Shown here: positions 7,440-38,628 of the stretch, piece after piece | Layout: every line of letters starts with the position of its first letter | Position numbering within the stretch: position 1 is the first letter of the stretch | Source of the DNA: Acidobacteriota bacterium | GTDB lineage: Bacteria > Acidobacteriota > UBA6911 > RPQK01 > JAJDTT01 | NCBI GenBank assembly: GCA_047514575.1 | Contig: JAKZYH010000181.1 | Location: 1-39,279 of the forward strand | Direction of reading: 5' to 3' | DNA length: 39,279 bases | Translations under genes and position numbers: made by a program | Notes under the pieces: model-generated | The model's database searches: none | The model's input: only the letters and a program-made list of their open reading frames with translations | Told to the model about the DNA's origin: nothing

Positions 7440-8312
7440 ATGCAAACCACGATCAAGGGTCCTGTCAAGGTCTCGGGAGTGGGTCTTCATACGGGTTGTC
7501 AGGTCTCACTGGAGTTGAAGCCGGCTCCACAGAACACTGGCATCGTTTTTCGGCGGATCGATCTTCAGAACTTCGAGATCGAGGCCTTACGCAACCACGT
7601 CTCACGCGTGGTACTTGCCACGACGCTGATGAAGCGAGGCGTGATGCTCTCGACAGTAGAGCATATTCTGTCAGCCCTGTACGGGCTCGGACTGGACAAT
7701 GTTTACCTGGATATTGACTCGCTGGAAGTCCCGATTCTGGATGGTTCGGCACTTCCCTTTGTCGAAGCCGTGCTCTCCGTGGGCATCGAGGAGCAGTCGG
7801 ATGAGCGGGTCCTTCTGAAAGTAGACAAGCCGATTCGTCTGGAGGATGGTGAGAAGTTCATCTCGATCGAGCCCTTCCCCACATTTCGGATCTCCTATGA
7901 GATAGAGTTCGCCCATCCGGCCATCGGTCGCCAGGAGATCGACCTGGAAATGAGTCCGGAGAGCTACGCCCGAGAGATTGCCTTTGCCCGAACCTTCGGC
8001 TTCTATGCGGAGGTCAAGCAGCTCCAGGACAAAGGGCTGATTCGGGGCGGATCGTTCGACAACGCCGTGGTCTTAAGTGATGATGGGATCATGAATGGCG
8101 AGCTGAGGGCGCCGGACGAGTTTGTCCGCCACAAGATGTTGGATTTGATCGGTGACGTTTCCCTTTGTGGATGGCCGATTATTGGTCACGTCAAGGCACA
8201 CAAGGCCGGTCACGCCTTGCACACCGCCCTGGCGACGGCCATCTTCCGCAATCCTTCCTTTTTCTCCAGAGTCAAACAGACAGACCCAATCGGGTGCACG
8301 ACACGAAAGTGA
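7440..8312 (+). CDS. lpxC: UDP-3-O-acyl-N-acetylglucosamine deacetylase; last codons replaced by IS sequence
   Basis: MQTTIK..SGVGLHTG, STVEHILSAL, EVPILDGSA, ARTFGF, EFVRHKMLDLIGD and KAGH motifs. Confidence 0.95.
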   Translation: MQTTIKGPVKVSGVGLHTGCQVSLELKPAPQNTGIVFRRIDLQNFEIEALRNHVSRVVLATTLMKRGVMLSTVEHILSALYGLGLDNVYLDIDSLEVPILDGSALPFVEAVLSVGIEEQSDERVLLKVDKPIRLEDGEKFISIEPFPTFRISYEIEFAHPAIGRQEIDLEMSPESYAREIAFARTFGFYAEVKQLQDKGLIRGGSFDNAVVLSDDGIMNGELRAPDEFVRHKMLDLIGDVSLCGWPIIGHVKAHKAGHALHTALATAIFRNPSFFSRVKQTDPIGCTTRK

Positions 8313-8396
8313 TGTTGTTGGTAAAGGCCAGAGAACGTCAGGGATTGCAGCTAGACTGTCTGACAGTTATATTAACTGTCAGACAGGAGGATTCCC

Positions 8397-8816
8397 ATGT
8401 CCCCAGAGGCTTCCCCTCAGAGCCCACTGGAACCACGGCGCCAACAGTTGAAACAGGCCTTGCTCGAGCTGGGCGATCTGCGTCCCGGATGCCTGGTGGC
8501 ACGCTACCGCCGCTGCGGCAAGGCCAACTGTCACTGTGCCCAGTCCGGGGACCCCGGCCACGGGCCCAGCTTCTCCTTGACCCGTCGCGTGGGCGACAAA
8601 ACCATCACCAAGATCATTCCACCGGGGCCCGCGGTCGAACAGACTCAGGAGCAGATCGCGGAATATCATCGATTGCGGAGCCTGCTCCAGGAGCTGGTGG
8701 AGGTCAGCGAGCAGATTTGTCAGGCCAAACTGGAGGCTCTGCCGGCCCCTACGGGCGAAAAAAAGGGCTCCAAAAGACGCTCGCGCAGGAGGTCCGGCGA
8801 GAAGTCCAGGTCCTGA
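8397..8816 (+). CDS. ISKra4 upstream ORF (Cys/His-rich, DUF6788-like); likely the N-terminus of a frameshift fusion with the transposase
   Basis: GGAGG RBS. RRCGKANCHC...GHGP motif. A_AAA_AAG at 8759-8765. Confidence 0.75.
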   Translation: MSPEASPQSPLEPRRQQLKQALLELGDLRPGCLVARYRRCGKANCHCAQSGDPGHGPSFSLTRRVGDKTITKIIPPGPAVEQTQEQIAEYHRLRSLLQELVEVSEQICQAKLEALPAPTGEKKGSKRRSRRRSGEKSRS

Positions 8817-10108
8817 TGGGGCCAGCGGCGGCCGAGGCCCTGGACTTTGAAGCCCTGGAGACCGCGGTTCGGCGCCAAGTCTTGGAGGTGGCGGCCCGGA
8901 CGGTGGAAGATCATCTCAACCAGGATCATACGGATACCGTCACCGGACTCAGCTGCCCCTGTGGAGGACGAGCCCGGCACGCGGGTCGGCGAGAGAAGCA
9001 GTTTACGACCGTGCTGGGGCCGATGCGATTGCAGCGGGCGTACTATCACTGCCCGGATTGCGGCGAAGGCTTTTGTCCCCGGGACCGAGAGCTGGGACTG
9101 GAGGACCGCTCCTTGTCTCCCGCCCTGGTACGGATGGTGGGGGCGGCCGCCTCCATGGTCAGCTTTCAAGAAAGCAGCGAGCTGTTGGACGAATTAGCCG
9201 GGGTTGAGGTGGGGGCCAAACAAGTGGAACGGTGTGCGGAGTCCCTGGGAGAGGACATCGCTCACTATGAGCGCGAGGTGGTCGAGCCGGACTCGCGGGT
9301 CTCTCTTCCTGCGACGCTCTATCTGGGGATAGACGGCACGGGCGTGCCCATGCGAGCGCCCGAACTACAAGGGCGAGCAGGCAAACAACCGGAGGGCTCG
9401 GCCCGGACCCGAGAGGCCAAGCTCTGCACGGTTTGGAGTGCGGAGAAACGGGATGAGCAGGGCCGGCCCCTGCGAGATCCGGACTCGGTAACCTACACCG
9501 CCGCGATCGAAAGCGCCGCCTCCTTGGACACCGATCATCAGCTTTCGGACTTCGCCCAGCGGGTGGAGCGGGAAGCCCAGCGCCGCCGCTTTGAACAAGC
9601 GCCCCGACAAGTCCTCTTAGGCGACGGAGCGAAATGGATCTGGAACCTGGCCGGGGAACTGTTCCCGGAGGCGGTACAGATTCTCGATCGCTTCCACGCC
9701 AAAGAGCGACTTCATGAGCTGTCCAAGAGTTTGTATGGAGATCGCGACTTGAGCCAAGACTGGGCCGAACAACGTTGCCGGGAACTCGATGCCGGTCGGA
9801 TCGAGGCGATCCTTTCGGCCCTCGCCACCGAGACGCAGCATCACGAAGAGGCTCGAGCGGCCTATGGCTACTTTCAAGAGAACGGCCATCGGATGCGCTA
9901 CGCTCGATTCGAGGCGCTCGGGCTGTGCACCTCTACCGGAGTGGTGGAAGCCGGCTGCAAGAACGCGATCGGCGCTCGACTCAAACGATCCGGAATGCAT
10001 TGGAGCGTGCGGGGAGCCAACGCCATCATGGCCCTTCGTTGCGCTCGCCTCAGTGGACGCTTTGAGGATTTTTGGGAGTGGAAGGCCGACCATAAAGCTG
10101 CAGCATGA
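8759..10108 (+). CDS. ISKra4-family DDE transposase (-1 frame relative to upstream ORF)
   Basis: CPCG and YYHCPDC Zn motifs, YLGIDGTGVPM, LGDGAKWIWN, ILDRFHA, TGVVEAGCK, RLKRSGMHW. Confidence 0.9.
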   Translation, partial: KKGLQKTLAQEVRREVQVLMGPAAAEALDFEALETAVRRQVLEVAARTVEDHLNQDHTDTVTGLSCPCGGRARHAGRREKQFTTVLGPMRLQRAYYHCPDCGEGFCPRDRELGLEDRSLSPALVRMVGAAASMVSFQESSELLDELAGVEVGAKQVERCAESLGEDIAHYEREVVEPDSRVSLPATLYLGIDGTGVPMRAPELQGRAGKQPEGSARTREAKLCTVWSAEKRDEQGRPLRDPDSVTYTAAIESAASLDTDHQLSDFAQRVEREAQRRRFEQAPRQVLLGDGAKWIWNLAGELFPEAVQILDRFHAKERLHELSKSLYGDRDLSQDWAEQRCRELDAGRIEAILSALATETQHHEEARAAYGYFQENGHRMRYARFEALGLCTSTGVVEAGCKNAIGARLKRSGMHWSVRGANAIMALRCARLSGRFEDFWEWKADHKAAA

Positions 10109-10219
10109 CTCCAATCATCACTTTTTTGTCGTGCACCCGACCCAATCTCCTCTCAGGCACCCAGCCTTTCCGCCTGAACTGGGCTTGAAATTTAACGTAG
10201 CGTCAGTCTCCGGGCCCAC

Positions 10220-10875
10220 GTCTGTCCCCAGCAGCCTCTCGCTAACGCCAGCCTCAGAACTCCTGATCTCCTGTGACTCTCTCGCAAGTCTTTTATCCTT
10301 GTCTGAAGAGTAGTTAACGCGTTATTCGAGTCCGAAGGCCGGGCCTCAGACCGGAATATTCAGTGGATCGACTCACGCTGATGGTCCCAGGAATAACTCT
10401 TTGGCGACCCTGGATGGATCTGAGTAACTGTCACGGTGTCAATCAGTTGCGCCGATTCGAGCGATCGACGTGGGAGAACTTTCCTGGGCCCAAACTGGGT
10501 TGAGCGGCTTCAACCCGCTGTAATGGGGCCAGATTAGTTTCCCAGAGATCAGGAGTTCTGAGCCTCTCGTTGACGTCATTCAGGCTCTCGTTGTTCAGGC
10601 TCTCGTTGACGTCTGTCCCCAGCGATGTGTCTACAACGATGATCTCCAAGGATGCAAAGATGACCTCTGTCCCCAATCGGCATGTCCAGTCAGCCCCGTG
10701 TTAACGTCTGTCCCCAACGAGGTCTCCCAACAATGACTTCAAGAATGTCAAGAATGATCTCTGTCCCCAGTCGGTACCCGTTGGGGTCAATGGTGCCCGT
10801 TGAAATCGATCCCCGTTGACCTCTGTCCCCAGTAGATGACCGCTGTCCTGTCCCCAGTAGATGACCGCTGTCCCT
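10220..10875 (-). repeat. Cluster of TGGGGACAGA motifs with local tandem duplications (interrupted by a MITE)
   Basis: TCTGTCCCCA at 10221, 10612, 10666, 10707, 10760 and 10822, plus degenerate copies at ~10847 and ~10867. Confidence 0.85.
10255..10560. mobile_element. Non-autonomous MITE, 306 bp, 16-bp perfect TIR CAGAACTCCTGATCTC, 5-bp TSD AGCCT
   Basis: TIRs at 10255-10270 and 10545-10560. AGCCT at 10250-10254 and 10561-10565. No transposase inside. Confidence 0.75.
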
Positions 10876-10961
10876 AGTCCTCCGGTGTGACATCGAAGAG
10901 TGCCAACGACTTTCCCGGGTGAGCAATCCGGTCGGGTAGCAGACCACCCAGCTAGACTATA

Positions 10962-18265: not shown

Positions 18266-21200
18266 CTAGTTGAGCAGGTCTTCGCCCTGGATGAAGGCGA
18301 TGACGTCGGCCAGATCCTGTGTTTTTAGATCTTGCTCAAGTCCGTCGGGCATCAAGGAGACGCTCGAAGCACGAATCTCTACGATCTGCGACCTGAGAAT
18401 CGCCGTTTCCTCTCCTTTGCCTCGCCTCATTGTAAGGGTACCAGGTGCCTCCGAGACGATTAGACCGTCATGCATTTGGCCGTCCTTTGTGATGATGACA
18501 TAGTTGGTATAGAAGGGCGAGACGACGCCACTGGGATCGAGAATGGCTTCTAACAGCTCCCTCTTGCTCTTGCCTTTTACCCGGCCTAGATCCGGGGCGA
18601 CCCCTTTGCCCTGTTGCCTGAGGTGGCAGCTGGCGCAGTGTTTTTCGGACAGTCTGCGACCGCGAGCGGGACTCGAGGGCAAGTCGAGTGCTGCCTGATG
18701 CTCCGTCACCACATTTGTCCGGTGGCTCTCGCGGTCCTTGAAGACTCGGGCGGCCGATTCACGAATCTGGGGGGATGGGTTTTCCAGAAGTTTCACCTTG
18801 CGCGGAAGGTCCAGAACAGACTCTTCGATTCTCCCAGCCTCAACTGCATCTAACAGTGGCTGCAAGTGTTGACGCCGGCTCAAAAGAACGTCGACTGCGG
18901 GCTGACGGATCTCGGGTCCAAAGATTCTCCAGCGGTCGATCAACAGTTCGCCAACCTGAGGCTCGTCGAAGAGGCCAAGGGTCCGGATGGTGTCTTTCAG
19001 CAGGTCTGGGTGCTGCTGGGGGGACAGAAGTTGATCGAACACCGGGAGCAGTTGCTGGAACCGGCCGCCTGCTAGAGATCGAATAGCTTCCCTTCTCTTC
19101 TTGGTCGACAGCATCGGTTCCAGTGCCTGTTGTGCGGAAACTTTGATCAGTTGCGCCAGTTCGAAGTGTTGTGCGACGGATCGGGCAGCTGACTGAACGG
19201 ATTCGGAGGAATCAACAAGCAGCGAGCCCAACAGACGCTCGGCTTCCGGGATCCTGAGTCCTCTGACCCCAGCCAGCTTGAGCCCGCTAGAGAGTCCGCT
19301 CAGTAGTGAGGTCTGACGGTCCCTGTTCTGGAGCGCGTTCACGCTAGCCATGAGTTCAAGCAGAGTGGAAACTTCCCTTCGGTCATTGCGCGCTCCGATG
19401 ATTGTTCCGATTTCCGTGAGGAACTTCGCTATGGGTGGTTCGGCCTCCCCGGGTAGCAGGGCTTTGAGTAGTTCAATGGAAGAGCCGCTTTTCGAACTCA
19501 ATACAGCAGCGCGAAGCCAACCATCCTGTGGGTGTCGCGAGAGCAGGGAGGCAAGAGCCTTGGTGATTGTGTGTCCTGAGAATTGGCCTAGAGTCAAAGC
19601 CAGTTGAAAGCGCACGCGCGCGGATGGGTCGTCGATCATACCGACAAGATGTTGCTGAAGTTCCTGGAAACCCTCCGCCAAACGCAGAGCATGCTCCCGG
19701 ACGTGAGGGCTGGCGTCCCGCAAGACCCTTCGGATCAAGGTGGCATTGAGAGCTGACAGTCCTTCCAGTGTGTACAGTGAGTGGAGACGCCCGTCGGCTC
19801 TCAGGCTTCCCAGACCCGTCTCCATCAACCACGGAATTGCCTGCCTATCCTGTCGTTCCAGTAGCAGACGCTGAGCGGTAAGTCTCCACCATGAGTTGCC
19901 GTGGGAAAGCAGTTTCACCAAGTCGTAGGTAGAAGCCCGACCAAGGTCGGGAGTGTCTCTGTCTCTGGGGACAGAGGTCTTGGGAAGCACACTGGGGACA
20001 GACGTCTTGGGAAGTACACGGTAGATACGTCCCCGATCGCCTCCTGCATAGAAATCCATACCTTCTTTCAGAGCATCTGGAATGAACTCGGGTCCCTCGA
20101 TGACTTCGCGATACATATCGACCACGTACAGATTTCCGTCAGGTCCGTTGGCCAGGTTGCATGGGCGGAACCATGGGTCGCTGGAAGCCAGGAACTCCGT
20201 CTCCTCTGCCACGCTACCTCGACTTGCAACGAAGGTACTGCCTCGAGGCCTCAGAGTATCCCTGTGTACAAGGTGGCCAGCCACATCTCCGGTGAACAGA
20301 TTCCCTCTATACTCCTCGGGAAATGTATCGCCGCCATAGACTGTGCCTCCAGAGGCGCCGGTGAAGAATCCAGAGGCCTCCTCCTTCCGATCCAGCTGCA
20401 GCTCTTGGAAGCGCCGCTGCCGGATCCTGGTCCGCTTTTCACGCCAGGACTCGGGAGGAGTCAGCTGAAATACACGCTCACCGTGGTCCGAGATGCTTTC
20501 CGAGGGTTGAGACACAGTGAAGAAGGGATTCCTTGCAAGATAGCGGCGCGGCATGACAGAGTAGCTTACATGACGGGAGTTGTGGGTAGAAAAGCGGTTT
20601 CCCCAGGAGTCCAAAGCCAGGCCATATTGAGTGGGACCCGAGGCTGCCTCGAAGAGTCCACGGTCGAGACGGAAGCGGAAATCGGCTCCAAGAACAGAAA
20701 CTGTCCGAGCCTTGGGACGCTCCGAGAACGTGATATCCCCCATTTGTCCACTGTTTGCAGCGTAGATCCAATTGTCGATGCAAAAGCGCAGGTTTGTGAT
20801 TCTGCCCTCCGGATGGGCCAGTCTGAATCCTGTGAATAGCACTCTCCGTATGTCAGCCTTTCCATCGCCGTTCGTATCTTTCAGGTACAGAATGTTGGGT
20901 GCCGCCGTAACCAACAACCCGCCCTTCCAGGGAAGCAGACCAGCTACTTGAAGAAGCTTGTCCGCGAAGATGGTAGAGTGATCCACCCTGCCATCGCGGT
21001 TTCTGTCTTCAAGTAGTTTGATTCTGCCCCGAGGAGATTTTCCCGGCGATGGATCGAACGGGTAGTCCAGCATCTCAGCCACAAAGGCCTGACCACGCTC
21101 GTCGAAGACTAGCTCGACCGGATCGACCACGTGGGGTTCAGCGGCAAACAACTCTACCCTGAAGTGATCCGCAATCTGCAGGCTCTTTAGTCCGTCCTCG

Positions 21201-21289
21201 GGTGAGAGCGCAGCGGTAGAAGGGGAGCACCCGATAGGGGAGAGCAGCGCAATGATTCCTAATACGGATCTCGTTACTGGAGGTACCAC
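18266..21289 (-). CDS. PVC-type heme-binding CxxCH protein (GSDH-like propeller + HEAT repeats + c-type cytochrome), putative lipoprotein
   Basis: VELFAAEPHVVDPV, FLASSDPWFRP, GPDGNLYVVDMYR, HEAT-like repeats, CASCH and SLMPDGLE. GAGGA RBS before GTG 21289. Confidence 0.88.
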   Translation of the reverse strand: MVPPVTRSVLGIIALLSPIGCSPSTAALSPEDGLKSLQIADHFRVELFAAEPHVVDPVELVFDERGQAFVAEMLDYPFDPSPGKSPRGRIKLLEDRNRDGRVDHSTIFADKLLQVAGLLPWKGGLLVTAAPNILYLKDTNGDGKADIRRVLFTGFRLAHPEGRITNLRFCIDNWIYAANSGQMGDITFSERPKARTVSVLGADFRFRLDRGLFEAASGPTQYGLALDSWGNRFSTHNSRHVSYSVMPRRYLARNPFFTVSQPSESISDHGERVFQLTPPESWREKRTRIRQRRFQELQLDRKEEASGFFTGASGGTVYGGDTFPEEYRGNLFTGDVAGHLVHRDTLRPRGSTFVASRGSVAEETEFLASSDPWFRPCNLANGPDGNLYVVDMYREVIEGPEFIPDALKEGMDFYAGGDRGRIYRVLPKTSVPSVLPKTSVPRDRDTPDLGRASTYDLVKLLSHGNSWWRLTAQRLLLERQDRQAIPWLMETGLGSLRADGRLHSLYTLEGLSALNATLIRRVLRDASPHVREHALRLAEGFQELQQHLVGMIDDPSARVRFQLALTLGQFSGHTITKALASLLSRHPQDGWLRAAVLSSKSGSSIELLKALLPGEAEPPIAKFLTEIGTIIGARNDRREVSTLLELMASVNALQNRDRQTSLLSGLSSGLKLAGVRGLRIPEAERLLGSLLVDSSESVQSAARSVAQHFELAQLIKVSAQQALEPMLSTKKRREAIRSLAGGRFQQLLPVFDQLLSPQQHPDLLKDTIRTLGLFDEPQVGELLIDRWRIFGPEIRQPAVDVLLSRRQHLQPLLDAVEAGRIEESVLDLPRKVKLLENPSPQIRESAARVFKDRESHRTNVVTEHQAALDLPSSPARGRRLSEKHCASCHLRQQGKGVAPDLGRVKGKSKRELLEAILDPSGVVSPFYTNYVIITKDGQMHDGLIVSEAPGTLTMRRGKGEETAILRSQIVEIRASSVSLMPDGLEQDLKTQDLADVIAFIQGEDLLN
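19965..20018 (+). repeat. In-frame 27-bp tandem duplication carrying two TGGGGACAGA motifs
   Basis: ctggggacagaggtcttgggaagcaca / ctggggacagacgtcttgggaagtaca. The protein reads VLPKTSVPS-VLPKTSVPR. Confidence 0.9.
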
Positions 21290-21392
21290 AGAATCCTCCT
21301 CAACCGGTGCCAGATCGGCGCAACATCTTAGCATAGAGGCTTTATGACGTCTTGCCTGAAGCTACCGGAGCTACAGGGGCCGCTAAGGCTAA

Positions 21393-21540
21393 GAGGAACA
21401 ATTGAGGAATAATTGGAAATAGTTGTGGAAAGAAATAGTTGGGGAAGAAATAGTTGGGGACAGACTTCAGTCGACACAGGCACCACTCTGTCGAGGACCG
21501 ACTCCGTGGTGCAGAATAGTGCGAGGTTGTGGGGACAGGG
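21393..21540 (+). repeat. Stuttered repeat region with TGGGGACAG motifs downstream of the HUH gene
   Basis: aagaaatagttgggg x2 plus degenerate copies. TGGGGACAGACTTCA at 21455-21469. Partial copy at 21530. Confidence 0.8.
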
Positions 21541-21641
21541 AGGCTATGCGGACAGGCGTCTTCTCTGAAGTTGTTTTCTGTGGGGCAGAATATGGAGAGG
21601 GTCTTCGATTTGTTGTAGGAGAACCTGAGTTTTCTCGAGCG

Positions 21642-22568
21642 TCAGGAAGGCGCTGAACTCCTGGATGTGCGCTGCTCGCGAAGAGTGAAGGCCAGACCTT
21701 CTAGGTGAGGGATCGGTTGGCGTGGCCGCGAGTAGCGTCCCTGTAGTTGAAAGAGCGTGATCCACTCCTCGATTTTCTCCTCACTTCCCAGAACGAGCCC
21801 GTCGACGAAATAGCGAAGCCGCTTTCGGTAAACCCCTTGACCTTGAAATCCCCGTTTCTGCTCCTGCTGCATCGTAGAGGCTGAGATCCTCGCCCCCTCT
21901 TTTCCCCCTCCTTCAAAGCCTCGGTAGTAGAGCAGGCTACGGTAGTTGAGCCTGTGATCCGGTCCGTCGAACAGTTTCGACAACGACATCAACCCTCCAT
22001 CGGCTCCGATCTGCCGCAAATAGGCCGAACTGGACCCATAGTCTTCGGGTCTTTCTACCAGATTCGCTCGCACCGGATTGAGCTCGATGTATGCCAACGT
22101 CTCCCGGATCGCTTGCGATCCCAGGACGACGGTGGAGTTGAAGCGCTCAGCCCACAGAGACCCGCGACGCCCGTAGTTGCGATTGTACCACCTGGCGTAG
22201 GAGCTCTGAATATTCCGCATAAGCTCGGAAAGGTCAAACAGACGACGATTGAAGCGCTCCCAATCGCGATCTGTCACTAGAATCTTCTCAGGCTTCGAGT
22301 ACATCAAGGCCGCACGTTTTTCAAGCTCACTTCGGCCTAGCTGACGGAAGGTTTCGAACTGCACCTCTACGTGGTAATGGTTGCTCATGAGGCTAAAGGA
22401 GGCCACTTCGCAAGAGTAGGCCTTGGTGTAGAAGCCAATCAGCTCCTCCAGTTTGTGGCGGGCAACTGGATCTTCAAAGGGAAACCACTTGGGTGGACCG
22501 GCCACGCGCGCGCTGATGTGGTAGAAGGTGTCCTCATCTTCGATCTTGATTCGTGGGATTCGTGCCAT
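21642..22568 (-). CDS. RAYT-like HUH/Y1 tyrosine transposase (IS200/IS605 TnpA superfamily)
   Basis: YHISAR, LMSNHYHV (HUH), RGSLWAERF and YIELNPVRANLVERPEDYGSSS (catalytic Tyr + NPV motif). No tnpB nearby. Confidence 0.9.
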   Translation of the reverse strand: MARIPRIKIEDEDTFYHISARVAGPPKWFPFEDPVARHKLEELIGFYTKAYSCEVASFSLMSNHYHVEVQFETFRQLGRSELEKRAALMYSKPEKILVTDRDWERFNRRLFDLSELMRNIQSSYARWYNRNYGRRGSLWAERFNSTVVLGSQAIRETLAYIELNPVRANLVERPEDYGSSSAYLRQIGADGGLMSLSKLFDGPDHRLNYRSLLYYRGFEGGGKEGARISASTMQQEQKRGFQGQGVYRKRLRYFVDGLVLGSEEKIEEWITLFQLQGRYSRPRQPIPHLEGLAFTLREQRTSRSSAPS

Positions 22569-22787
22569 TTCGCTAAGGCCTTTCGTCTGAGGGTCAATGC
22601 TCCCTGTCGGAGAGCCCTGTTCAGGGTAGTCTGTTACACAGTTCCTCTCTGATAACGATCTTGCTCGTGGATCTGCGAAGGGAGATTGGATCTTCGTGGA
22701 AGTTTTTTACAAGGGCCAGATGAAGAGGAAACTGTAAGGTCCGACTGGGAAATCCTCGTTTGGATGTTCCCGTTTTTCCGGCAAAGA

Positions 22788-22916
22788 GTTGCCATTTGCC
22801 TTTGCCTTTGCCTTTGCCCCAGTTGCCCCCGGTTAAAGTCTGTCCCCAGTTGCCGTCCGCTAAGAGTTGCCGTCCCAGTTGCCCCCGATTGAAGTCTGTC
22901 CCCACTTGTCCCCACT
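22788..22916 (-). repeat. Stuttered repeat region with TGGGGACAG motifs upstream of the HUH gene
   Basis: (TTTGCC)x4. Imperfect ~32-bp duplication ccagttgccccc.....aagtctgtcccca at ~22817-22848 and ~22873-22904. Extra tgtcccca at ~22907. Confidence 0.85.
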
Positions 22917-23170
22917 TCTCTGAAGGAGGCTCGGAGAGATGCCAACCCTGAAACTAGGGAAGGAAGCATTTTCCGGGACACGTTTTTTATTCTCAGGGCG
23001 TTAATGTAGAGTACTTCAGGCGCTACCTCGGAAGGCCGAAAGAGTTGCAGTCGGCTCTTGCGTCCGAATGTTCGCTTCTTGGCTTATCGCGCTAAGGCTT
23101 CAATCGGCGGAAGGGAGCACCGGGGCCGGATCTGCTCTTGAGTCGACTGTTTCTTTCTACATCGTCGAGA

Positions 23171-25312
23171 ATGGCCAGCAGAATCGATCTTGAGGACAAT
23201 GACCTTCAGGCTGCTCTCCAAGAGCACTTCGGGTTCTCCGAATTCCTTCAGGGACAGGAAGAAACAATACGCAACGCCTTGAAGGGCCGCGATATGGTGG
23301 TGGTGATGCCCACAGGCTCGGGTAAATCCCTCTGCTACCAGCTCTTGTCTTTGGTGTTGCCGGGGATCTCAATCGTCGTATCCCCCTTGATCGCCCTGAT
23401 GAAAGACCAGGTAGACGGACTCGAGGCACGAGGGCTGCCTGCGACCTACATCAACTCCTCACTCCCGGCCCTGGAAATGAGGGAGCGCATCGAGGCGCTA
23501 CGGTCCGGAAGTTACAAGCTAGTCTACGTCGCTCCGGAGCGATTCCGGGACCGGCGTTTCTTGGATGCGGTGGGCCGGAACCAGATTTCCCTCATGGCGA
23601 TTGATGAGGCCCATTGCATCAGCCAGTGGGGACATGATTTTCGTCCCGAATATCTTCGTCTGCGAGAGGTTCTGGCCGATCAGCCGTCGACCCGAGTGAT
23701 GGCGATGACGGCTACGGCTACTCCCTACGTCCGCTACGACATCATCAAGCAGATCGGACTCGGCGAGGACGGGAGAGGTGAGCCGCTAGTCCTGGTCTAT
23801 GGTTTTTCACGCCCGAATCTAAAGCTGGTTGTTTCACGGGTCTCCAGCCACGCTGAAAAGATGGACCATGTTCGTCAGGCAATTGAGCGATATCAGACTG
23901 GAATCGTCTACTGCGCCACCCGCAAGCAGACGGAAAAGGTGAACGGACTCCTGAAGGCAGCTGGTCATAACTGCGGTCTCTACCATGGAGGACTACTAGA
24001 TAGCCAACGCAAGGAAGTTCAGGACGAGTTCATGAATGGCGATACTCCTGTTGCGGTGGCGACCAATGCCTTTGGCATGGGGGTGGATCGACGTGATCTC
24101 CGCTTTGTGGTGCATTGGGACGTTCCCGGAAGCATCGAGGCCTACTATCAGGAGATAGGACGTTCTGGAAGAGACGGCCAGGAATCCTTGTGCAAGTTGC
24201 TTTACAGCTATGCCGATGTCCGGACCCAGGAATTCTTTCTGGACGGTGCCAATCCCAGCCGAGAGGAGGTCGAAACCCTTTGGAGCAGGGTCCGCGAATG
24301 CTGTTCGCAGGGACCCGCGGTATGTGATCTCTCGAAGTGGGTTGGGTCGATCAGCAAGAATGAGATGACCGTTCGAACTGTTTTGTCAATCCTGGAACGG
24401 GCGGGCCTTATCCGATGCGAAAGGGTGCCTCGTGGTTCCAGCCTACTGATCTCGATCGTGGCAGGAGCTGATCTTGGAGTACTGGAGCAGCAGTTTGTCT
24501 ATCTGAGTGAGAAACGGAATCGGGACAAGCGCAAGCTCCAGGACATGTTGCGCTACGCTGGCACTCCAAGCTGTCGGCAAGCCTACATTCTTAGCTATTT
24601 CGGTGAGAGTGACGTCGCTGCGGAGTGTAATAATTGCGATCGCTGTCGACCTATCAAGGGCGAGGAGGTTCGTGAGCCGTTCGAGGAAGAATGGCCTGTC
24701 CTACAGAAAGTCTTGAGTTGTGTGGCCCGAATGAGAACCAGCTTCGGTTGTGCCCGGGTGGTTCAGGTCTTAACGGGATCGAGAGCCAAGCCTGTCCTGG
24801 AACGGGGCTTGGACCACCTCTCCACCTACGGTCTGCTGAAGGATCATGGCGAGGGCTACGTCCGCCGCATTCTGGATGAGCTGGTTCAAGAGGGATGCGT
24901 CCGGATTACTACCGGGGACTATCCCCTGGTCGATATCACAGAGCTGGGCAGGAGAGTCATGTGGAGGAAAGAGACGGTGGCCATTACCTGGCCCTCCGTG
25001 AAGCCCCAGTCGAAGACTCGATCCGAAAACAAGGAGTGGCCCGTGTCCTCTTACGATGCCGAGCTTTTCCGGGAATTGAAATCCTGGCGGTTGGCGGAAG
25101 CGCAAGCCAAAAGGGTCCCGGCCTTCGCTGTCCTGCACGATGCCACTTTGAAGGGTGTCGCAGCCTTTTGTCCGCAGAACCTCTCCGAATTAGAAAGAGT
25201 CAAGGGAATCGGCCCGACGAAGGTGGCCAAGTATGGCGATGCCCTGCTTGGTATCATCGACGATTGGGTTAAGAAACAAGAGGGCACTGATCTCGAACAG
25301 AGCGCAGAATAG
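23171..25312 (+). CDS. recQ: RecQ-family ATP-dependent DNA helicase with Zn-binding, RQC and HRDC domains
   Basis: MPTGSGKSLCYQ, DEAHCISQWGHDFRP, ATNAFGMG, YYQEIGRSGRDG, CNNCDRC and an HRDC domain (VPAFAVLHDATL..GIGPTK). Confidence 0.93.
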   Translation: MASRIDLEDNDLQAALQEHFGFSEFLQGQEETIRNALKGRDMVVVMPTGSGKSLCYQLLSLVLPGISIVVSPLIALMKDQVDGLEARGLPATYINSSLPALEMRERIEALRSGSYKLVYVAPERFRDRRFLDAVGRNQISLMAIDEAHCISQWGHDFRPEYLRLREVLADQPSTRVMAMTATATPYVRYDIIKQIGLGEDGRGEPLVLVYGFSRPNLKLVVSRVSSHAEKMDHVRQAIERYQTGIVYCATRKQTEKVNGLLKAAGHNCGLYHGGLLDSQRKEVQDEFMNGDTPVAVATNAFGMGVDRRDLRFVVHWDVPGSIEAYYQEIGRSGRDGQESLCKLLYSYADVRTQEFFLDGANPSREEVETLWSRVRECCSQGPAVCDLSKWVGSISKNEMTVRTVLSILERAGLIRCERVPRGSSLLISIVAGADLGVLEQQFVYLSEKRNRDKRKLQDMLRYAGTPSCRQAYILSYFGESDVAAECNNCDRCRPIKGEEVREPFEEEWPVLQKVLSCVARMRTSFGCARVVQVLTGSRAKPVLERGLDHLSTYGLLKDHGEGYVRRILDELVQEGCVRITTGDYPLVDITELGRRVMWRKETVAITWPSVKPQSKTRSENKEWPVSSYDAELFRELKSWRLAEAQAKRVPAFAVLHDATLKGVAAFCPQNLSELERVKGIGPTKVAKYGDALLGIIDDWVKKQEGTDLEQSAE

Positions 25313-25393
25313 GATGTCTTTGGGCCCTCAGATGTTGCAGGCAGCTTCCAGCTTGGTTTCGCGAGACAGCGGTTTTCCCAAGCGGAGGAGACG

Positions 25394-26188
25394 ATGATGG
25401 TGTGCGCTGTATTGATCGCCATAGTAATGGGCCTTGTCGGTCAAGACGTGTGGTGCCACGACTTCTGGATAGAACCCTCGACCTTCATGCCGAAGCTGGG
25501 CTCGCCTGCCCACATTCGTCTGATGATTGGCGAAGACTTCAAAGGCGATTCCCTTCCACGCGATCCATCCCATATCAAGAGGTTCTTGCTCGCCGGACCC
25601 GGTGGAGAATCTCCGATCGTGGGTCTTTCGGGCTCTGAACCCGCTGGCTACGTTCGCTTCGAGTCGCCGGGTCTCCACGTGATCGGCTATCGTAGTAGAG
25701 AGAGGTCTATCACCCTGGAAGCAGAGCAGTTTGAGAGCTATCTTGCAGAGGAGGGGCTGGAGGAGATCGTTCGTTTGCGGGCCCATAAGGGCAAGACCCA
25801 GCAACCTGCCAGGGAGATTTTCTCCCGCTGTGCAAAGTCCCTCCTGGTCGCAAGTCAGTTGGACTCGGAAATAGTCGATCTTCAGCTGGGCTTCACACTG
25901 GAACTGATGGCCGAGAAGAACCCCTATTCTTTGGCTGAGGGTCAGACCCTGCCCGTTCGTCTACTGTATAGAGACGAGCCTTTAGAGGGAGCCAGGATCG
26001 TGGCGCTCAGCAAAGAGAAGCCGGACAAGAAACTGATGCTGCGCTCCGACCAGGAAGGGCGCGTCCTCCTTCAACTTTCTCGTAGGCGAACCTGGCTGGT
26101 GAAAGCGGTCCACATGATTCCTGTGCCCGAGGGTGCCGGAGCCGACTGGGAGAGCATCTGGGCTTCTTTGACCTTCAGGATTCCCTAG
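25394..26188 (+). CDS. DUF4198-family exported protein
   Basis: Signal peptide then HDFWIEP. EKNPYSL, WLVKAVHM and ADWESIWASLTF motifs. Confidence 0.8.
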   Translation: MMVCAVLIAIVMGLVGQDVWCHDFWIEPSTFMPKLGSPAHIRLMIGEDFKGDSLPRDPSHIKRFLLAGPGGESPIVGLSGSEPAGYVRFESPGLHVIGYRSRERSITLEAEQFESYLAEEGLEEIVRLRAHKGKTQQPAREIFSRCAKSLLVASQLDSEIVDLQLGFTLELMAEKNPYSLAEGQTLPVRLLYRDEPLEGARIVALSKEKPDKKLMLRSDQEGRVLLQLSRRRTWLVKAVHMIPVPEGAGADWESIWASLTFRIP

Positions 26189-27399
26189 TGTCATGTCACG
26201 TGTGATATGTCGGTATAGTAAGATACGCTTCTCCTTACGAAAGGAGGATCGTGATGCCGCAGATCCGTTACAAGGTGACCTTGACTGGGGAAGAGCGGGA
26301 CCGGTTACGGGAGATGACCACGCGAGGCAAGCACAGCAGCCAAAGCGTATTGAACGCCTTGATCCTGCTGGGTTGCGACGAAGGGCCGTTTCAGGAGCGC
26401 AAACTGACAACCGAAGAGATCGCCAACGTGCTGCCGGTGAGCTTGAAGAAGATCGAGCGAACCAAGCGCCGTTTTGTCGAGCAAGGTCTGGAGGTGGCGT
26501 TGGAAAAACAGCCGCCCCGCCGCGAGTACAGGCGCAAGGCAGACGGAGACTTCGAGGCTCATTTGGTGGCGCTCTCTTGTAGCCAGCCACCGAAGGGGCA
26601 TGCGCGCTGGTCGCTACGCGTGCTGGCCGACAAGATGGTGGAGTTGGAATACGTGGATTCGGTGTCCTACGAAACCGTACGGCGGGTTCTAAAAAAACGC
26701 TTTAAAACCCTGGAAGCGGCTGCGATGGGTCATCCCACCCGCCCATAACGGGTACTTTGTCGCCCACATGGAGCAGGTGCTCGAGATCTACAAGCGGCCC
26801 TACGATCCGGTTCGCCCTTTGATCTGCATGGATGAAACACCCCGGCAACTGATTCGGGAGACGCGACTGCCGCGGCCGACTGCGCCCGGTCGAATAGTCC
26901 GCTACGACTACGAGTACGAACGCTGCGGGGTCTGCAACGTCTTCCTGGCGGTCGAACCGCTGGCCGGTCGACGAGTCGCGCAGGTGACCCAACGCAGGAC
27001 CAAGAGCGATTGGGCAGGGTTCGTCGAGCGCCTCGCCCGCCTTCACCCGGAGGCGGAGAAGATCACTTTGGTGATGGACAATCTCAATACGCATGGCCCC
27101 GGCGCACTCTACGAGACCTTCCCGCCGACGATTGCCAAGGCGCTGTGGGACCGTTTCGAGTTTGTTTACACACCGAAACACGGTTCCTGGCTGAACATGG
27201 CCGAAATCGAACTCAGCGTGCTGGCTCGCCAGTGTCTGAATCGACGCATCGACAACCTCGAGGAGATGCGGGCCGAGGTGGATGCCTGGCAGGACCAAAG
27301 AAACAACCTCGACGCCAAGATCGACTGGCAGTTCACATCCGAAAATGCGCGCATCAAACTGAAGCGTCTATACCCGACACTTAAAGAGTGACATGATAC
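26188..27399 (+). mobile_element. IS630-family insertion sequence (1212 bp), TA target duplication
   Basis: TA-GTGTCATGTCAC ... GTGACATGATAC-TA. Two-ORF transposase inside. Confidence 0.9.
26254..27391 (+). CDS. IS630 transposase split into HTH (orfA) and DDE (orfB) parts joined at an A7 run (26691-26697)
   Basis: orfA PPKGHARWSLR..VSYETVRRVLKK. orfB NALKPW..CMDE..DYEYER..VMDNLNTH..YTPKHGSWLNMAEIE. Confidence 0.9.
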
Positions 27400-27468
27400 T
27401 AGTACCAGGTCACATGGTTTCCAGTGATGATTGGGGTGGAGAAAAATGGGCTGCCTGCTCCCTTGAGA

Positions 27469-28632
27469 TCAGATGCTCGCATCGTATACCACTTGGCCCC
27501 CGACCACGGTCTGTTGAATCTGAATGCCCGTTTCGGTCCACTCGAAGCGGATAATGTTCGCTTTTTTGCCAGGCTCCAGCGTCCCCAGTTCTCTTTCTTT
27601 CGATAGAAGTTGTGCAGGGTGTAGGCTTGCCATGTGGATGGCTTCCGAGAGAGATGTCCCAGCAAATCGAACTACGTTGGCGACACCCTGATCAATGCTG
27701 GCTCCGGCTCCGAAGAGATACGGTGTTCCGGCGAGCGAGATACGTCCCTCAGGCCCTACTTCGACTGTCTGGGACCCCACTGGATAGAAGCCTGATGGCA
27801 GTCCCGCCATGACGACTGCGTCGCTGATCAAGATGCTTCGGTGAGTTTCTTTGCTTCGGAGCATCGATTTGACTACGGACGGAGGCAGGTGGTGTCCGTC
27901 GACGATAAAACTCGCCATCAGATTGTCGTTGGCCAACTGATCCCAGATATAGTTGGGATGTCGCTTAAGTGAGGCATGTGCCCCGTTGCCGAGGTGTGTA
28001 GACAGGCGCGCTCCCGCACGGGCGGCTTCGGTAATGTCTCGGGTCTCAGCGTTAGCGTGTCCCAGTGAGACGACGATCTGTTGGTCCACTAATCTCTCGA
28101 TGAACTGGATTGCCCCTTCCGTCTCAGGGGCAAGTGTGACCAGGCGGATACGGCCTTCTGCAGCCTCCTGAAAGCGGCAAAACTCATCCCAATTGGGAGG
28201 CCTCACGTGCTCGATTGGATGGGCTCCTCGGGGGCCGTCGACCGCCGAAATGTAGGGGCCCTCCAGATGGATACCCAGAACAGATCGCTCGATCTGCGGA
28301 TCACGGCAGGCCTCGCTCACATACCTCAAGGAGGCCAGCATAGCTTTCGGAGCCGCGGTGACAACGGTTGGACACAAAGTCCCAACACCACATCCCCACT
28401 GCGATTCGACCATGCTCGCGATCGAGTTGGGGGTCGCATCGGGTCCGTTGACAGCATGTCCTCTGAAGCCATTGATGTGGAGGTCTATCAGCGCAGGAGC
28501 GATCCATGTTTTGGGTGTATGTGGAGCCTCCTCGACCTTGCTGATGAGTCCGCGCTCGACCTTCACTAGAACAGGTTTTCCAGAGAGGTAGTTCTTGCCG
28601 AGAAGTTGTCTGTCCTGCGCCGATGCTGGCAT
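27469..28632 (-). CDS. nagA: N-acetylhexosamine-6-phosphate deacetylase (NagA-like)
   Basis: IDLHING, GIHLEGPYIS..GAH, VTLAPE, SLGH, THLGN, DGHHL, ISDA. Confidence 0.8.
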   Translation of the reverse strand: MPASAQDRQLLGKNYLSGKPVLVKVERGLISKVEEAPHTPKTWIAPALIDLHINGFRGHAVNGPDATPNSIASMVESQWGCGVGTLCPTVVTAAPKAMLASLRYVSEACRDPQIERSVLGIHLEGPYISAVDGPRGAHPIEHVRPPNWDEFCRFQEAAEGRIRLVTLAPETEGAIQFIERLVDQQIVVSLGHANAETRDITEAARAGARLSTHLGNGAHASLKRHPNYIWDQLANDNLMASFIVDGHHLPPSVVKSMLRSKETHRSILISDAVVMAGLPSGFYPVGSQTVEVGPEGRISLAGTPYLFGAGASIDQGVANVVRFAGTSLSEAIHMASLHPAQLLSKERELGTLEPGKKANIIRFEWTETGIQIQQTVVGGQVVYDASI

Positions 28633-28647
28633 TTTGCCTCTGTTGGC

Positions 28648-31125: not shown

Positions 31126-31261
31126 GGACCGACTCCAACCCTTTTCGAGAGAAGCCGAAGATAGCGTGGGGCTTTGAGACAGTCAAGAAGGGGCAGTTCT
31201 ATTCGTATCTGTGTCCTTGATCACCGAGAAGCAACCCTCCCATTTGTTTCAATTAGAGCAA

Positions 31262-31381
31262 ATGAATACCTGGGTAATCTTCGTGCTGCTGATGGGCGTC
31301 GTCGCCTTCTATTTTTTTCTGTCGGTCCACCTCTTGTTCAGCTTTGCAAGTCAGTTCTTCTTCAGAGCACGCAGGAAGTGA
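31262..31381 (+). CDS. Putative small membrane protein, 39 aa (MNTWVIFVLLMGVVAFYFFLSVHLLFSFASQFFFRARRK)
   Basis: Manually translated ATG-TGA ORF below the ORF-track cutoff. One long hydrophobic segment and a basic tail. RBS is weak. Confidence 0.45.
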   Translation: MNTWVIFVLLMGVVAFYFFLSVHLLFSFASQFFFRARRK

Positions 31382-31448
31382 ACATCACGATCCGCGAGAA
31401 GCTCTTGGTTGAGGTTCTCGAATTCGTTGCCCACAAAAAAGGTTACCA

Positions 31449-31635
31449 AGCTGGGAGCGAGCCGGGGGAGCGAGCTGGGGACAGAGACCGAGCTCGAGAC
31501 AGAGGACTGGAGGACGAGCGGAGGCCTGGGGACAGAGGTCTGCACCGAGTTGAGGTCTGCACCGAGCTGCTTGCGAGCTGGGGACAGAGGTCAGAGGGAA
31601 GAAGAGAGGGAAGAAGTGTGTGGGGGACAGAGGTT
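31449..31635 (+). repeat. Cluster of TGGGGACAGAG motifs with local duplications
   Basis: Motifs at 31476, 31527, 31579 and ~31622. Duplications gggagcgagc x2, gaggtctgcaccgag x2 and agagggaagaag x2. Confidence 0.85.
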
Positions 31636-31756
31636 GTTTTTCCGAGAGGTTCCCCTGTTGGGCGGGAAGGGGAAATCTGTCTTGACCTGAGTGAGTGACC
31701 TCCGCCAGCGAGGCCGAAGGGCGGAGCAGGCGACGACCCCGGACAGCCCTCGGCCG

Positions 31757-32452
31757 TCAGGGCCGCTCGACGGAGAAGCGAAACTCTACCCGACGGTTCT
31801 TCTCTCGATTTTCACGGCCGTCGTTGGCAGCGATGGGGCGGGTGTCGGCGTATCCTCCGGCGACCAGCCTATCCGCGGGGACTTCGCATTCCTCAACCAA
31901 GAAACGGATGACGGCCGTCGCTCGAGCTGCCGATAGCTCCCAGTTGGAGGCGTAGCTAGTTGTCTTGATGGGAATGTCATCGGTATGTCCATCTACTCGA
32001 AGTGTCATCGAGGGTTTGCGTTTTACGAGTTCCGCAATCTTTTTCAAATGATCGTGCATTTCAGGTTTTAACCTGGCCTCTCCCGATTCATGGAGGACTT
32101 TTCCCGGCACGATGAGGAGCACGACTTTTCCCTTACTTGATTCGCTACGGGGGAAGGAGTTGGGTATCAGCGACTGGAGCTCTTTCATCAGCGTATTCTG
32201 ACCGCTTTGGTCCACCAGGACGGGAGTCCCCTGGCCGGGGACAGTCGTCAATTTTGAGTCCATGGTCGTGCCAAAGGCATCCTTGATCGAACCGATGAAA
32301 AGCCGGTACTTGGTAGCGTCCACCTGGGAAAAGGAGAGTAGCAGGGCAAAGAAGCAGAGCAGCAGCGTCATCATATCGGCGAACGTCACCATCCAAGCGG
32401 GAGCACCGGCTTCCTCTTCTTTCGGTGGTGGTTTGGGACGATCAAAAGGCAT
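31757..32452 (-). CDS. motB: MotB/OmpA-family stator-like protein
   Basis: PAWMVTFADMMTLLLCFF TM motif, GHTDDIPI, SNWELSAARA, NRRVE. Confidence 0.85.
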   Translation of the reverse strand: MPFDRPKPPPKEEEAGAPAWMVTFADMMTLLLCFFALLLSFSQVDATKYRLFIGSIKDAFGTTMDSKLTTVPGQGTPVLVDQSGQNTLMKELQSLIPNSFPRSESSKGKVVLLIVPGKVLHESGEARLKPEMHDHLKKIAELVKRKPSMTLRVDGHTDDIPIKTTSYASNWELSAARATAVIRFLVEECEVPADRLVAGGYADTRPIAANDGRENREKNRRVEFRFSVERP

Positions 32453-32666
32453 AAGGCTCCCCTCGGGGCGCGAGCAAGTTCAACCTGGCCTTTTGGAGTC
32501 TCTCCTTCAGACCGGGTCTTATCGCTCCTAGATCGCGAATCCTGGGCGTCTGTCTTGTGGGCCTACGGTTTCGCTCAGCCGCGTCGGCCTCCGAATCTGC
32601 GCAAATCCACGCAAGCATTCCTGAGCCGGCTCTATTCTATGGTTTCGGTAAAAACCTGTGAGCCCT

Positions 32667-33068: not shown

Positions 33069-33101
33069 ACTGTCCTCCTTAAGAAGTCGCCCCGGGAGAG
33101 C

Positions 33102-34247: not shown

Positions 34248-34669
34248 GGTGGTCTCCGGATTGCTCGTGTGCTCTCCAGCTCTGAAAGCTAAGACTACAC
34301 CCGGTGGGCATGAGCTTCAAGACAGGGGTCCCAACGGTCCCGACTGCATGTCAAGAGTGATTTCGCGGCGATCGGAGAAACAGAGATTCGACTTTTCAGA
34401 GCAAGAGGAATCACTTAGAGACGAGGTCGACGATTGTGCAGTTGATCAGAGTCCTGGACAGGGGGAATGGACAGCGGCAGAGTTGGTCTTACTTTCGACT
34501 GCTCCTGAGTGGTCTTGCGTACGTAGCTTCAGTCCTACCAATGCGTTATGATAAATCAGGGATCGCGATGGAGCTCAGGCAGGGCACCTCACGAGGGTGG
34601 TTCAGGTGGGCCACTTTCCCGGTGGATTCGAGGTCGATGGCACATCCGAATGGCTTGCTTGCTTTGATC

Positions 34670-38476: not shown

Positions 38477-38573
38477 ACCCAGGGAAAGAAGTCGGGGAAA
38501 GAAGTCAGTCGGGGAAAGAAGTCTGTCCCCACCCAGGGAAAGAAGTCTACCCAGGGAAAGAAGTCTGTCCCCA
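38477..38573 (-). repeat. Mosaic repeat: GGGAAAGAAGTC x5 with two TCTGTCCCCA motifs
   Basis: acccagggaaagaagtc/ggggaaagaagtc units. Motifs at 38522 and 38564. Confidence 0.9.
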
Positions 38574-38628
38574 ACCAACGAGTCCTGTCGGATGCGACTC
38601 GCCGTGATACACTCGACCGGGACTGAAA

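Follow-up and report, generated by a model that had tools for sequence, protein, structure and literature searches.

A TIRYT-type Y1 nuclease gene and motif-anchored micro-duplication arrays in an Acidobacteriota genome

Why does the short repeat that bounds a transposase-like gene recur, in clusters of stuttering duplications, in the DNA around that gene? This question is raised by contig JAKZYH010000181.1 of the Acidobacteriota assembly GCA_047514575.1 (G000), which was analysed over its full length of 39,279 nucleotides (nt) and is called the window here. The window carries a gene for a 308-residue Y1 HUH tyrosine nuclease, and the sequence TGGGGACAGACTTCA stands on both sides of this gene as a perfect 15-bp inverted pair. 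The gene and its motif are of a known kind, namely a TIRYT enzyme with GGGGWSAS inverted repeats, as described in the text of Di Nocera et al. (2013, BMC Genomics 14:522). The arrays of micro-duplications that are anchored on the motif appear to be new. These arrays keep fixed positions, vary rapidly in content, are concentrated around the gene and can even occur within genes, and they were not found described in the main texts of the surveys discussed below.

The best explanation of these observations has three parts. GGGGACAG(A) would be the cognate recognition motif of the enzyme and an instance of GGGGWSAS. The secondary motif sites within tens of kilobases (kb) of the gene would be mutation hot spots. 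Beside the motif, short tandem duplications (6-45 nt) would form and units would be gained or lost, usually with one edge 3' of GGGGACAG, so that the arrays stay put through speciation and their content turns over.

The motif and the duplications beside it

TGGGGACAGA occurs exactly 17 times in the window, with an expectation of 0.10 from 100 dinucleotide shuffles, none of which reached 17. Sixteen of these copies fall into six clusters, and the orientation is uniform inside each cluster. Five copies lie at 10.6-10.8 kb with one more at 10221, two at 19.97 kb, one at 22.84 kb adjoining the upstream terminal repeat, three at 31.5 kb together with a fourth GGGGACAGA, and two at 38.5 kb; two more belong to the 15-bp inverted pair. 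The remaining copy, at 29032, stands alone inside a coding gene and is found at the same place in four relatives; it is probably ordinary coding sequence. The shorter word GGGGACAG reads GGGG-A-C-A-G and is an exact fit to GGGGWSAS. An earlier note on this DNA, made from the sequence alone, had listed the same 17 copies, the same six co-oriented clusters and the same inverted pair, and all of these were recovered. The extended consensus that it proposed, TGGGGACAGA[CG][GT]T[CT]W, holds for 14 of the 17 copies and fails for those at 10221, 10760 and 31476. The note had also placed the copies among imperfect duplications; 16 of the 21 rows returned by Tandem Repeats Finder for the whole window do lie within the six clusters.

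Tandem duplications are concentrated beside the motif, being enriched 4-10 fold within 60 bp of it in the genome of the window, in the sister genus and in distant metagenomic relatives. Across G000, a tandem repeat (period of at least 6) lies within 60 bp of 28 of the 52 motif sites, compared with 43 of 904 sites of eleven control words and 506 of 5000 random non-coding positions. A run of G alone is insufficient, since the GGGG-bearing control words GGGGAGAGA, GGGGTCAGA, GGGGACACA and GGGGAGACA stay at the background level, with a repeat at 3 of 32 non-coding sites, and GGGGACAGA has one at 21 of 31. In addition, 8 of the 10 multi-copy clusters (4 of 5 outside the window) have within 60 bp a repeat that is free of the motif; such a repeat was found in 921 of 5000 random non-coding spans of 200 bp. 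The enrichment check that the earlier note had suggested thus gave a strong excess over both control words and random positions.

Similar figures were obtained in relatives. In the non-syntenic neighbourhood of the G005 ortholog, 10 of 18 repeats lie near the motif, and near-motif sequence makes up 4.7% of the total. The corresponding values are 5 of 34 and 2.6% in G004, 5 of 9 and 4.4% in G002, and 11 of 51 and 5.1% in 100 kb of the sister-genus genome G007, where a reversed-word control gave 1 of 51 and 1.5%. For GGGACAG in 80 metagenomic loci of distant relatives, 35 of 186 repeats are near the motif (3.9% of sequence), compared with 2 of 186 for the reversed word (0.8%). As judged from sequence, the array footprint appears to be family-wide, extending from the genus of the window to relatives at 26-43% identity.

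The duplications also tend to share one edge. Perfect duplications no further than 100 bp from GGGGACAG number 75; in 31 of them an edge lies no more than 5 nt from the 3' end of the motif, and for 17 the distance is no more than 2 nt; uniform placement would give about 10%, by a rough estimate. Typically, a unit ending in GGGGAC(AG) is repeated upstream or a unit beginning right past GGGGACAG is repeated downstream.

None of the 29 array spacers matched elsewhere in the assembly, so that their origin is local. This result bears on the explanation that the arrays were built by classical transposition of tiny non-autonomous units (REP/BIME, REPIN) inserted beside an existing motif. RAYT-type enzymes are held to spread REPs, and the co-oriented, head-to-tail order of the units fits insertion beside the target. 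However, the units share only about 15 nt between locus-specific spacers, many duplicated units do not contain the motif, and neither hairpins nor inverted doublets were seen. Seven array or inverted-repeat stretches were folded as single-stranded DNA; none was more structured than expected from shuffles (z scores of -1.83 to +1.89), and for the upstream array the shuffles even folded better. Likewise, REP hairpins with a GTAG-type foot were absent at the gene flanks, where four folds gave z scores of -0.81 to +1.89. These folds agree with the view of the earlier note that the copies are not self-contained hairpins, and the transposition of tiny units is an improbable source of the arrays.

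The assembly of G000 (6.74 Mb in 819 contigs) contains 52 exact 10-mers, against 15.5 expected, and 17 of the 52 are in the window contig. The motif is not a genome-flooding repeat. The genome-wide count called for by the earlier note bore out an excess and corrected its scale. G000 is a fragmented metagenome bin with 7.9% contamination, which would suit the explanation that the arrays reflect chance, base composition or an assembly artefact. The shuffles given above argue against this, as do the same arrays in independent assemblies of sister species (4 to 310 contigs; 30 for G004) and in the contigs of public runs from several studies. With these results an artefact is refuted as the cause of the arrays' existence, and the explanation is given next to no weight.

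The six arrays are listed with the gene and its terminal repeats in Table 1. Each unit of array A has its own stutter of 9-25 nt, and the stutters of array E begin directly past GGGGACAG. The host gene of array B is conserved and encodes a 1022-residue DUF7133/HEAT/cytochrome c protein. The repeat encodes VLPKTSVP, with Ser-Val-Pro coded by the complementary strand of the motif. The linker is VLPKTSVPSVLPKTSVPRD in G000, and longer, different versions are present in G004 and G002. Here a short repeat tied to a mobile-type enzyme would thus generate variation in protein length.

Table 1. Positions of the nuclease gene, its terminal repeats and the motif arrays in the window
Feature	Position	Strand	Description
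Y1 HUH tyrosine nuclease gene, 308 residues	21642..22568	-	Open reading frame (ORF); Pfam, alignment, AlphaFold2 (AF2) model
Upstream terminal inverted repeat	22890..22904	-	TGGGGACAGACTTCA in gene orientation; 322 nt before start codon
Downstream terminal inverted repeat	21455..21469	+	Reverse complement in gene orientation; 173 nt past stop codon
Array A	10579..10878	-	Five exact 10-mers (10612-10831) and degenerate copies; single copy at 10221-10230
Array B	19965..20019	+	27-nt x2 in-frame motif array inside coding sequence 18266..21334 (-)
Array C, downstream of gene	21393..21469	+	11-nt x2.1 and 15-nt x2.9 stutters ending in motif
Array D, upstream of gene	22789..22917	-	Motif copies at 22839 and 22895; 27-nt and 10-nt stutters; TTGCCT hexamer run
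Array E	31453..31640	+	Three exact 10-mers and a fourth GGGGACAGA; 12-17 nt stutters
Array F	38482..38577	-	Two motif copies; 17/18-nt stutters

The nuclease and its placement among known systems

The 308-residue protein matches the Pfam family PF01797 Y1_Tnp with 32.3 bits (cut-off 23), as do all 30 aligned homologs. It scores below the cut-off of the NCBIfam equivalog REP_Tyr_transpos, with 47 bits against 80 and a match to residues 112-177 only. A database search gave 326 relatives, mostly of about 310 residues, part of which are named 'REP element-mobilizing transposase RayT' by JGI. In the alignment of 30 sequences, H64 of the HUH triad H64-Y65-H66 is invariant and H66 is at least 90% conserved. 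The catalytic Tyr160, within YIELNP, is also at least 90% conserved, and N164 is invariant. Two further regions are conserved among the 30 relatives. The first is an insertion of about 40 residues past the HUH strand, with secondary structure placing helices 79-109 between strand 64-71 and helix 113-132. The second is a C-terminal tail of about 125 residues (approximately 180-308), which had no Pfam match in any of 30 family members and gave only unnamed clusters when this part was searched in the Atlas (0.87-0.88, below the level that was counted).

The AF2 model has a pLDDT of 82.4, and its best Foldseek match in the PDB is 4ER8, E. coli TnpA_REP in complex with a REP hairpin (E 2e-6, target TM 0.75). 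The next matches are 2A6O, 2F4F and 2XQC, which are transposases of IS608, IS200 and ISDra2. A sequence search of the PDB with the family profile gave no chain at E<=1. The ratio of nonsynonymous to synonymous divergence (dN/dS) between the gene and its G004 ortholog is 0.17, similar to the 0.12-0.31 of neighbouring genes, and the gene is thus under purifying selection. Its sequence signatures and predicted fold place the protein among the Y1 HUH enzymes of the RAYT lineage, in the branch associated with terminal inverted repeats (TIRYT). The earlier note had called it an HUH/Y1 RAYT-like enzyme, with which the Pfam match, the alignment and the structural match to 4ER8 agree.

Read in gene orientation, the motif is forward on the upstream side and reverse on the downstream side, and this placement was also found in orthologs and paralogs. 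In the text of Di Nocera et al. (2013), RAYT-like genes with terminal inverted repeats replacing REPs are termed TIRtrons and their enzymes TIRYTs. Many TIRtron repeats are said there to share GGGGWSAS, and the extra copies are modest in number and often form dimers or clusters. The GGGG-W-CAG motif that the earlier note had mentioned for the neighbourhood of RAYT-like genes is this published GGGGWSAS. The Y1 gene of the window resembles a TIRtron in two ways. It is bounded by terminal inverted repeats and not by REPs, and further copies of the repeat occur in the genome, where the 52 exact 10-mers form 32 clusters, 10 of them multi-copy. It differs in that the main text of Di Nocera et al. 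(2013) contains neither motif-anchored micro-duplications nor a concentration near the gene, and neither fixed-position arrays with turnover of content nor in-frame arrays within genes; the supplements may list relatives or their flanks. A literature search on RAYTs with tandem duplication, slippage or hypervariability gave nothing relevant among the matches listed.

In the text of Quentin et al. (2018, BMC Genomics 19:475), most TIRYTs are equated with subclass 2.1, inside which subclass 2.3 is nested. Subclass 2.3 is described there by a median length of 325 residues, NHYH, the W motif 'WE', YVDLNP and a 55-residue insertion between beta3 and alphaC. Its members are also said to have a long tail of their own, to occur as several divergent copies in a genome and to be without REP-like hairpins. 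The protein of the window is similar in its length (308 residues, with relatives of about 310-325), its S-N-H-Y-H, its beta3-alphaC insertion and its long C-terminal tail. Several divergent copies per genome and a lack of REP-like hairpins are found here as well. At the W motif the query reads LWAERF, compared with W[AEDSG] among family members. At the Y motif it reads YIELNP, where members of the family have YVELNP or YVDLNP; YIELNP is the Y motif listed for subclass 2.1 in that text. One difference is that subclass 2.3 is reported there mainly from Chromatiales and Alteromonadales and with no flanking repeats, whereas flanks of the GGGGWSAS type are present here. The C-terminal features of subclass 2.1.2, namely Bac_DnaA_C, HTH_23 and HTH_28, had no Pfam match at E<=1 in 30 family members. 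By signatures alone, the protein would match subclass 2.3/2.1.

Three better-studied systems were also compared. In structure, the N-terminal 180 residues come closest to the E. coli enzyme TnpA_REP (4ER8). Both proteins have the class-2 signature Y---NP (here Y160-I-E-L-N-P), and each is encoded by a single-copy, vertically kept gene with its own targets inverted at both flanks. However, TnpA_REP reads a GTAG-tagged hairpin, and neither a hairpin nor GTAG is present here; the 308-residue protein is also nearly double the length of TnpA_REP. Of the characters of RAYT/TnpA_REP in the strict sense, the protein has Y---NP but neither the equivalog score nor the GTAG hairpin flanks. The TnpA enzymes of IS200/IS605 (IS608, ISDra2) share the HUH/Y1 fold and chemistry and an action on single-stranded DNA at short words by the element ends. 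Those elements are true insertion sequences whose copies are near-identical and carry subterminal hairpins, and they favour the lagging strand; none of this was seen here. In the REPIN-RAYT system (Bertels and Rainey 2011; Bertels et al. 2017), an enzyme gene that is vertically inherited at one locus is likewise accompanied by a population of short repeats in the same genome. REPINs are hairpin-forming inverted doublets with hundreds of copies genome-wide, whereas the arrays here are direct, non-palindromic and locally concentrated, with tens of copies only. For Group 1 of Bertels, which Table 1 of Quentin et al. (2018) equates with subclass 2.1, the flanking 16-mers are repeated only modestly.

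Gene, motif and arrays in relatives and strains

The comparison set contained 41 related genomes, including the unpublished G016, on which no conclusion depends. The protein family is present in 29 of the 41, and none of the 14 other genomes in the family of G000 lacks it. In the sister genus, eight of nine genomes have 4-12 divergent copies each and the fragmented ninth has 2; each copy is bounded by the motif, whose flank variant is close to AAAAGGGGACAGTCT. Of 11 further loci, 8, from relatives with 45-83% identity, have the motif forward upstream and/or reverse downstream. For example, the loci of G004 and G002 have it on both gene flanks. At L007 the motif is reduced to the 7-mer GGGACAG, and deviations from the flank pattern were seen at L004 and L010.

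An excess of the motif co-occurs with the protein family among the 41 relatives, as the earlier note had proposed to check. In the genus of the window, GGGGACAGA is about 2.3-4 times as frequent as its reversed control. For GGGGACAGT the corresponding ratio is about 6-14 in the sister genus and 10 in G023, another carrier of the protein. The 12 genomes that lack the protein gave 0.8-1.7 for GGGGACAGT and 0.9-3.2 for GGGGACAGA. Related genomes are kin, and these counts are not independent. A second paralog, 42% identical, was found in G000 (G000:C540:3341-4488) on a 4.6-kb contig that ends 150 nt past the gene; GGGGACAGAC and a stutter lie about 200 nt upstream of it. G001 and G003 carry this paralog type only, yet they have the highest motif counts in the genus.

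An exact inverted repeat of 11 nt or more was found at 8 of 52 metagenomic loci with both flanks (26-43% identity), and in 5 of these 8 it contains GGGACAG or GGGGTCAG. GGGGWSAS lies upstream in forward orientation at 12 of 65 loci and in reverse at 2 of 65. Downstream it showed no orientation preference (reverse at 5 of 60, forward at 9 of 60), and only 4 of 49 loci have it on both flanks. Either the majority of the distant relatives use other ends or the extrapolated gene ends are off. Four distant contig matches were rejected as informative kin, being short classical RAYT-like genes with 29-40% partial identity; GGGGWSAS flanks are absent from these four save for one stray match.

Motif copies are concentrated about 20-fold around the gene. 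The window holds 19 copies of GGGGACAGA in 39 kb (123 in the genome), the surroundings of the G004 ortholog 23 in 76.5 kb (119), and those of the non-syntenic G005 ortholog 12 in 40 kb (163). The distance from the gene to a copy reaches 17 kb, and other contigs have copies too, so that any action of the enzyme would be in trans, as the earlier note had held. The window is syntenic with G004 and G002, and in all three the gene lies between the DUF7133/HEAT/cytochrome c gene and recQ. The syntenic slot in G001, G003 and G005 has unrelated genes and no nuclease copy. The syntenic span contains 19 copies of GGGGACAGA in G000 and 21 in G004, and without the gene 8 in G001, 4 in G003 and 6 in G005. 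These counts fit a gene-proximity effect, and they may represent a single evolutionary event. That the gene does not itself transpose, as the earlier note put it, is favoured by its fixed slot in three species and disfavoured by the 4-12 motif-bounded copies in sister-genus genomes. The slot between window positions 21334 and 23138 is variable; in G003, G001 and G005 it is taken up by unrelated ORFs (1.5-5.8 kb). In G001 a solitary GGGGACAGAC stands where the downstream terminal repeat would be.

All six species have the arrays at corresponding intergenic positions, with differing copy numbers. For array A, the GGGGACAG copies number 7 in G000, 5 in G004, 3 in G001, 2 in G003 and 0 in G005; for array E the numbers are 4, 6, 1, 0 and 2, respectively. 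At the site of array F, G004 also has two motif copies, with an entirely different stutter sequence. Each species has its own duplications at the same array sites, and these are perfect and thus recent. Synonymous divergence (dS) between G000 and G004 is about 0.45-0.55, at which neutral intergenic DNA is hard to align, so that divergent spacers are unremarkable by themselves.

The constancy of these sites across six species could also mean that the arrays serve the host, in a regulatory, terminator or nucleoid-organising role, and that the nuclease gene merely shares the motif at its ends. The strand of the arrays is in line with this: by crude ORF-based gene calls, every one of the 6 multi-copy arrays in or between co-directional genes (contigs C172, C372, C507; arrays A, B, E, F) has its G-rich strand antisense to those genes. 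However, single motif copies in or between co-directional genes trend the other way, 6 of 7 being sense. The fast turnover of content and copy number, the location of array B inside a coding sequence and the result of an Rfam search, which gave 0 matches in the window, also speak against a host function, which is very improbable.

Arrays also differ in length between near-identical and closely related populations, a comparison that the earlier note had proposed. The contigs of four public runs were compared on window positions 19280-39279. The coverage of one run, X1, was too thin to inform on its arrays, and joints with fewer than 30 letters per side, mostly in RecQ and an IS630-like element, were set aside. 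In two runs, contigs of about 4.3 kb had zero substitutions, and array D was the sole difference from the window. One of these runs lacks 6 nt at 22795; the other lacks 2 nt at 22805 and has 18 additional nt behind 22825. A strain diverged by about 3% lacks one 15-nt stutter unit of array C at 21430 and has 3 nt in place of 137 nt in array F. In array E it is short of exactly two motif units (31469 to 31573; 103 nt), with a 17-nt overlap, which was the one credible joint in the comparison of run contigs. Of the 12 indels listed over 20 kb, 11 fall within arrays C, D and F or adjoin them; the exception lies in the IS630-like element, which is covered by foreign high-depth contigs.

A possible mechanism and its alternatives

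HUH Y1 enzymes cut and rejoin single-stranded DNA through a 5'-phosphotyrosine link, which is established for IS608, ISDra2 and TnpA_REP. The enzyme of the window would bind and nick one strand at or next to GGGGACAG^ while the DNA is single-stranded. Adjoining sequence could then be added or removed by imprecise resealing or by strand transfer between neighbouring motif copies. Alternatively, repair or replication restart from the free 3'-OH could have the same effect. Four observations point to the motif as the target in vivo and to the arrays as scars of activity, namely that the catalytic residues are conserved, that gene and motif are paired in a conserved way, that duplications are enriched at the motif and that their edges cluster on one side of it. 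Cleavage at the motif, a causal role of the enzyme and a preference for sites near the gene are what we infer from them. We assign a probability of roughly 0.5 to the reading that nick-primed re-synthesis, or mis-rejoining between neighbouring copies, makes the arrays.

This reading is weakened by several observations. First, the ortholog in G002 (G002:C92:13162-14076, locus L003) is a pseudogene with Y160H and an in-frame TAG. It also has substitutions at the family-invariant N164, R167 and C53, and two further family copies in G002 look split or stopped. Stutters nevertheless persist beside motifs in G002, where they account for 5 of the 9 tandem repeats. Either the loss is recent, or an intact copy is hidden (the assembly is 94% complete), or the enzyme is not needed. 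The motif copies of arrays B and E in G002 are partly degenerate, which would fit decay following enzyme loss in this single lineage. The interpretation given in the earlier note is supported in part: its enzyme class, motif, co-occurrence, duplications and polymorphism stand, and the stutters of G002 with its dead ortholog do not fit it.

Secondly, G001, G003 and G005 have retained arrays at the same sites with no copy of the gene at the locus. The compared species are kin, and G000 and G004 may count as one event. Third, most motif copies in a motif-rich 40-kb region of G007 are single and have no stutter. In addition, the first 100 of 183 GGGGACAGT sites in the complete G007 genome form alternating orientation blocks and no two-replichore pattern of the IS200/IS605 type. 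Fourth, the polymorphism comes from short-read contigs, and repeats are where assemblers err; the genome-wide denominator is also uncertain owing to the fragmented assembly. Fifth, no TIRYT activity is reported in the texts of Di Nocera et al. (2013) or Quentin et al. (2018). Lastly, the clustering of edges could come from microhomology at the G-run.

The 40-kb region of G007 (G007:C1:2297000-2336999; L111, L112) contains 31 GGGACAG cores, most on one strand. Many are single copies of a word of about 20 nt, close to GGAGAAGGGGACAGTCACCTT when read motif-forward, and no nuclease gene is listed there. REP-like local dispersal therefore coexists with the array mode in G007.

Two of these points, the edges and G002, lead to the main alternative, in which the motif is a real protein binding site and the duplications are passive slippage or template switching at a bound or G-rich site. 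The duplication edges lie in or beside the G-run, where microhomology favours slippage, and stutters persist in G002, whose ortholog is without the catalytic Tyr. The conserved C-terminal tail of about 125 residues might bind DNA alone, to judge from sequence and model. However, the comparison of GGGG control words with GGGGACAGA given above argues that the G-run does not suffice. The HUH and Tyr residues are also conserved under purifying selection, which argues that catalysis matters. Passive slippage is accordingly regarded as rather unlikely.

Nicking at the motif, if it does make the arrays, invites a wider proposal that is possible but doubtful. TIR-associated Y1 nucleases would be site-directed local mutators and not transposases, with a nick at GGGGACAG^ priming short re-synthesis or mis-rejoining and so writing templated micro-duplications beside each motif copy, preferentially within tens of kb of the gene. 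The arrays maintained in this way would hold their positions, change quickly and lie between genes or even in them, there diversifying protein linkers. TIRYTs are a large REP-less group of RAYTs, and their function is left open in the texts of Di Nocera et al. (2013) and Quentin et al. (2018). The three-part footprint of micro-duplications, fixed arrays with turnover and length differences provides a first concrete hypothesis on the role of TIRYTs in cells, and it also suggests the position at which the enzyme cuts. If the link is causal, it would represent protein-directed, sequence-addressed local hypervariability in bacteria. This would be distinct from simple-repeat slippage, diversity-generating retroelements and transposition.

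Two mobile-type elements were also observed in the window. A UPF0236 transposase-like ORF (8165..10108) has no counterpart in G004, G003, G001 or G005. The stretch 8291-10814, which includes the left part of array A, is absent from the same four genomes and may be an insertion beside or into array A. The IS630-like element (HTH_32 and DDE_3 ORFs, 26189-27418) is absent at its site in G004, G002, G003 and G001. A copy in G005 matches it with 97.5% identity, compared with about 82% for the surrounding genes, and the element is very deep in the public runs. It looks like a recently spread insertion sequence that is unrelated to the arrays.

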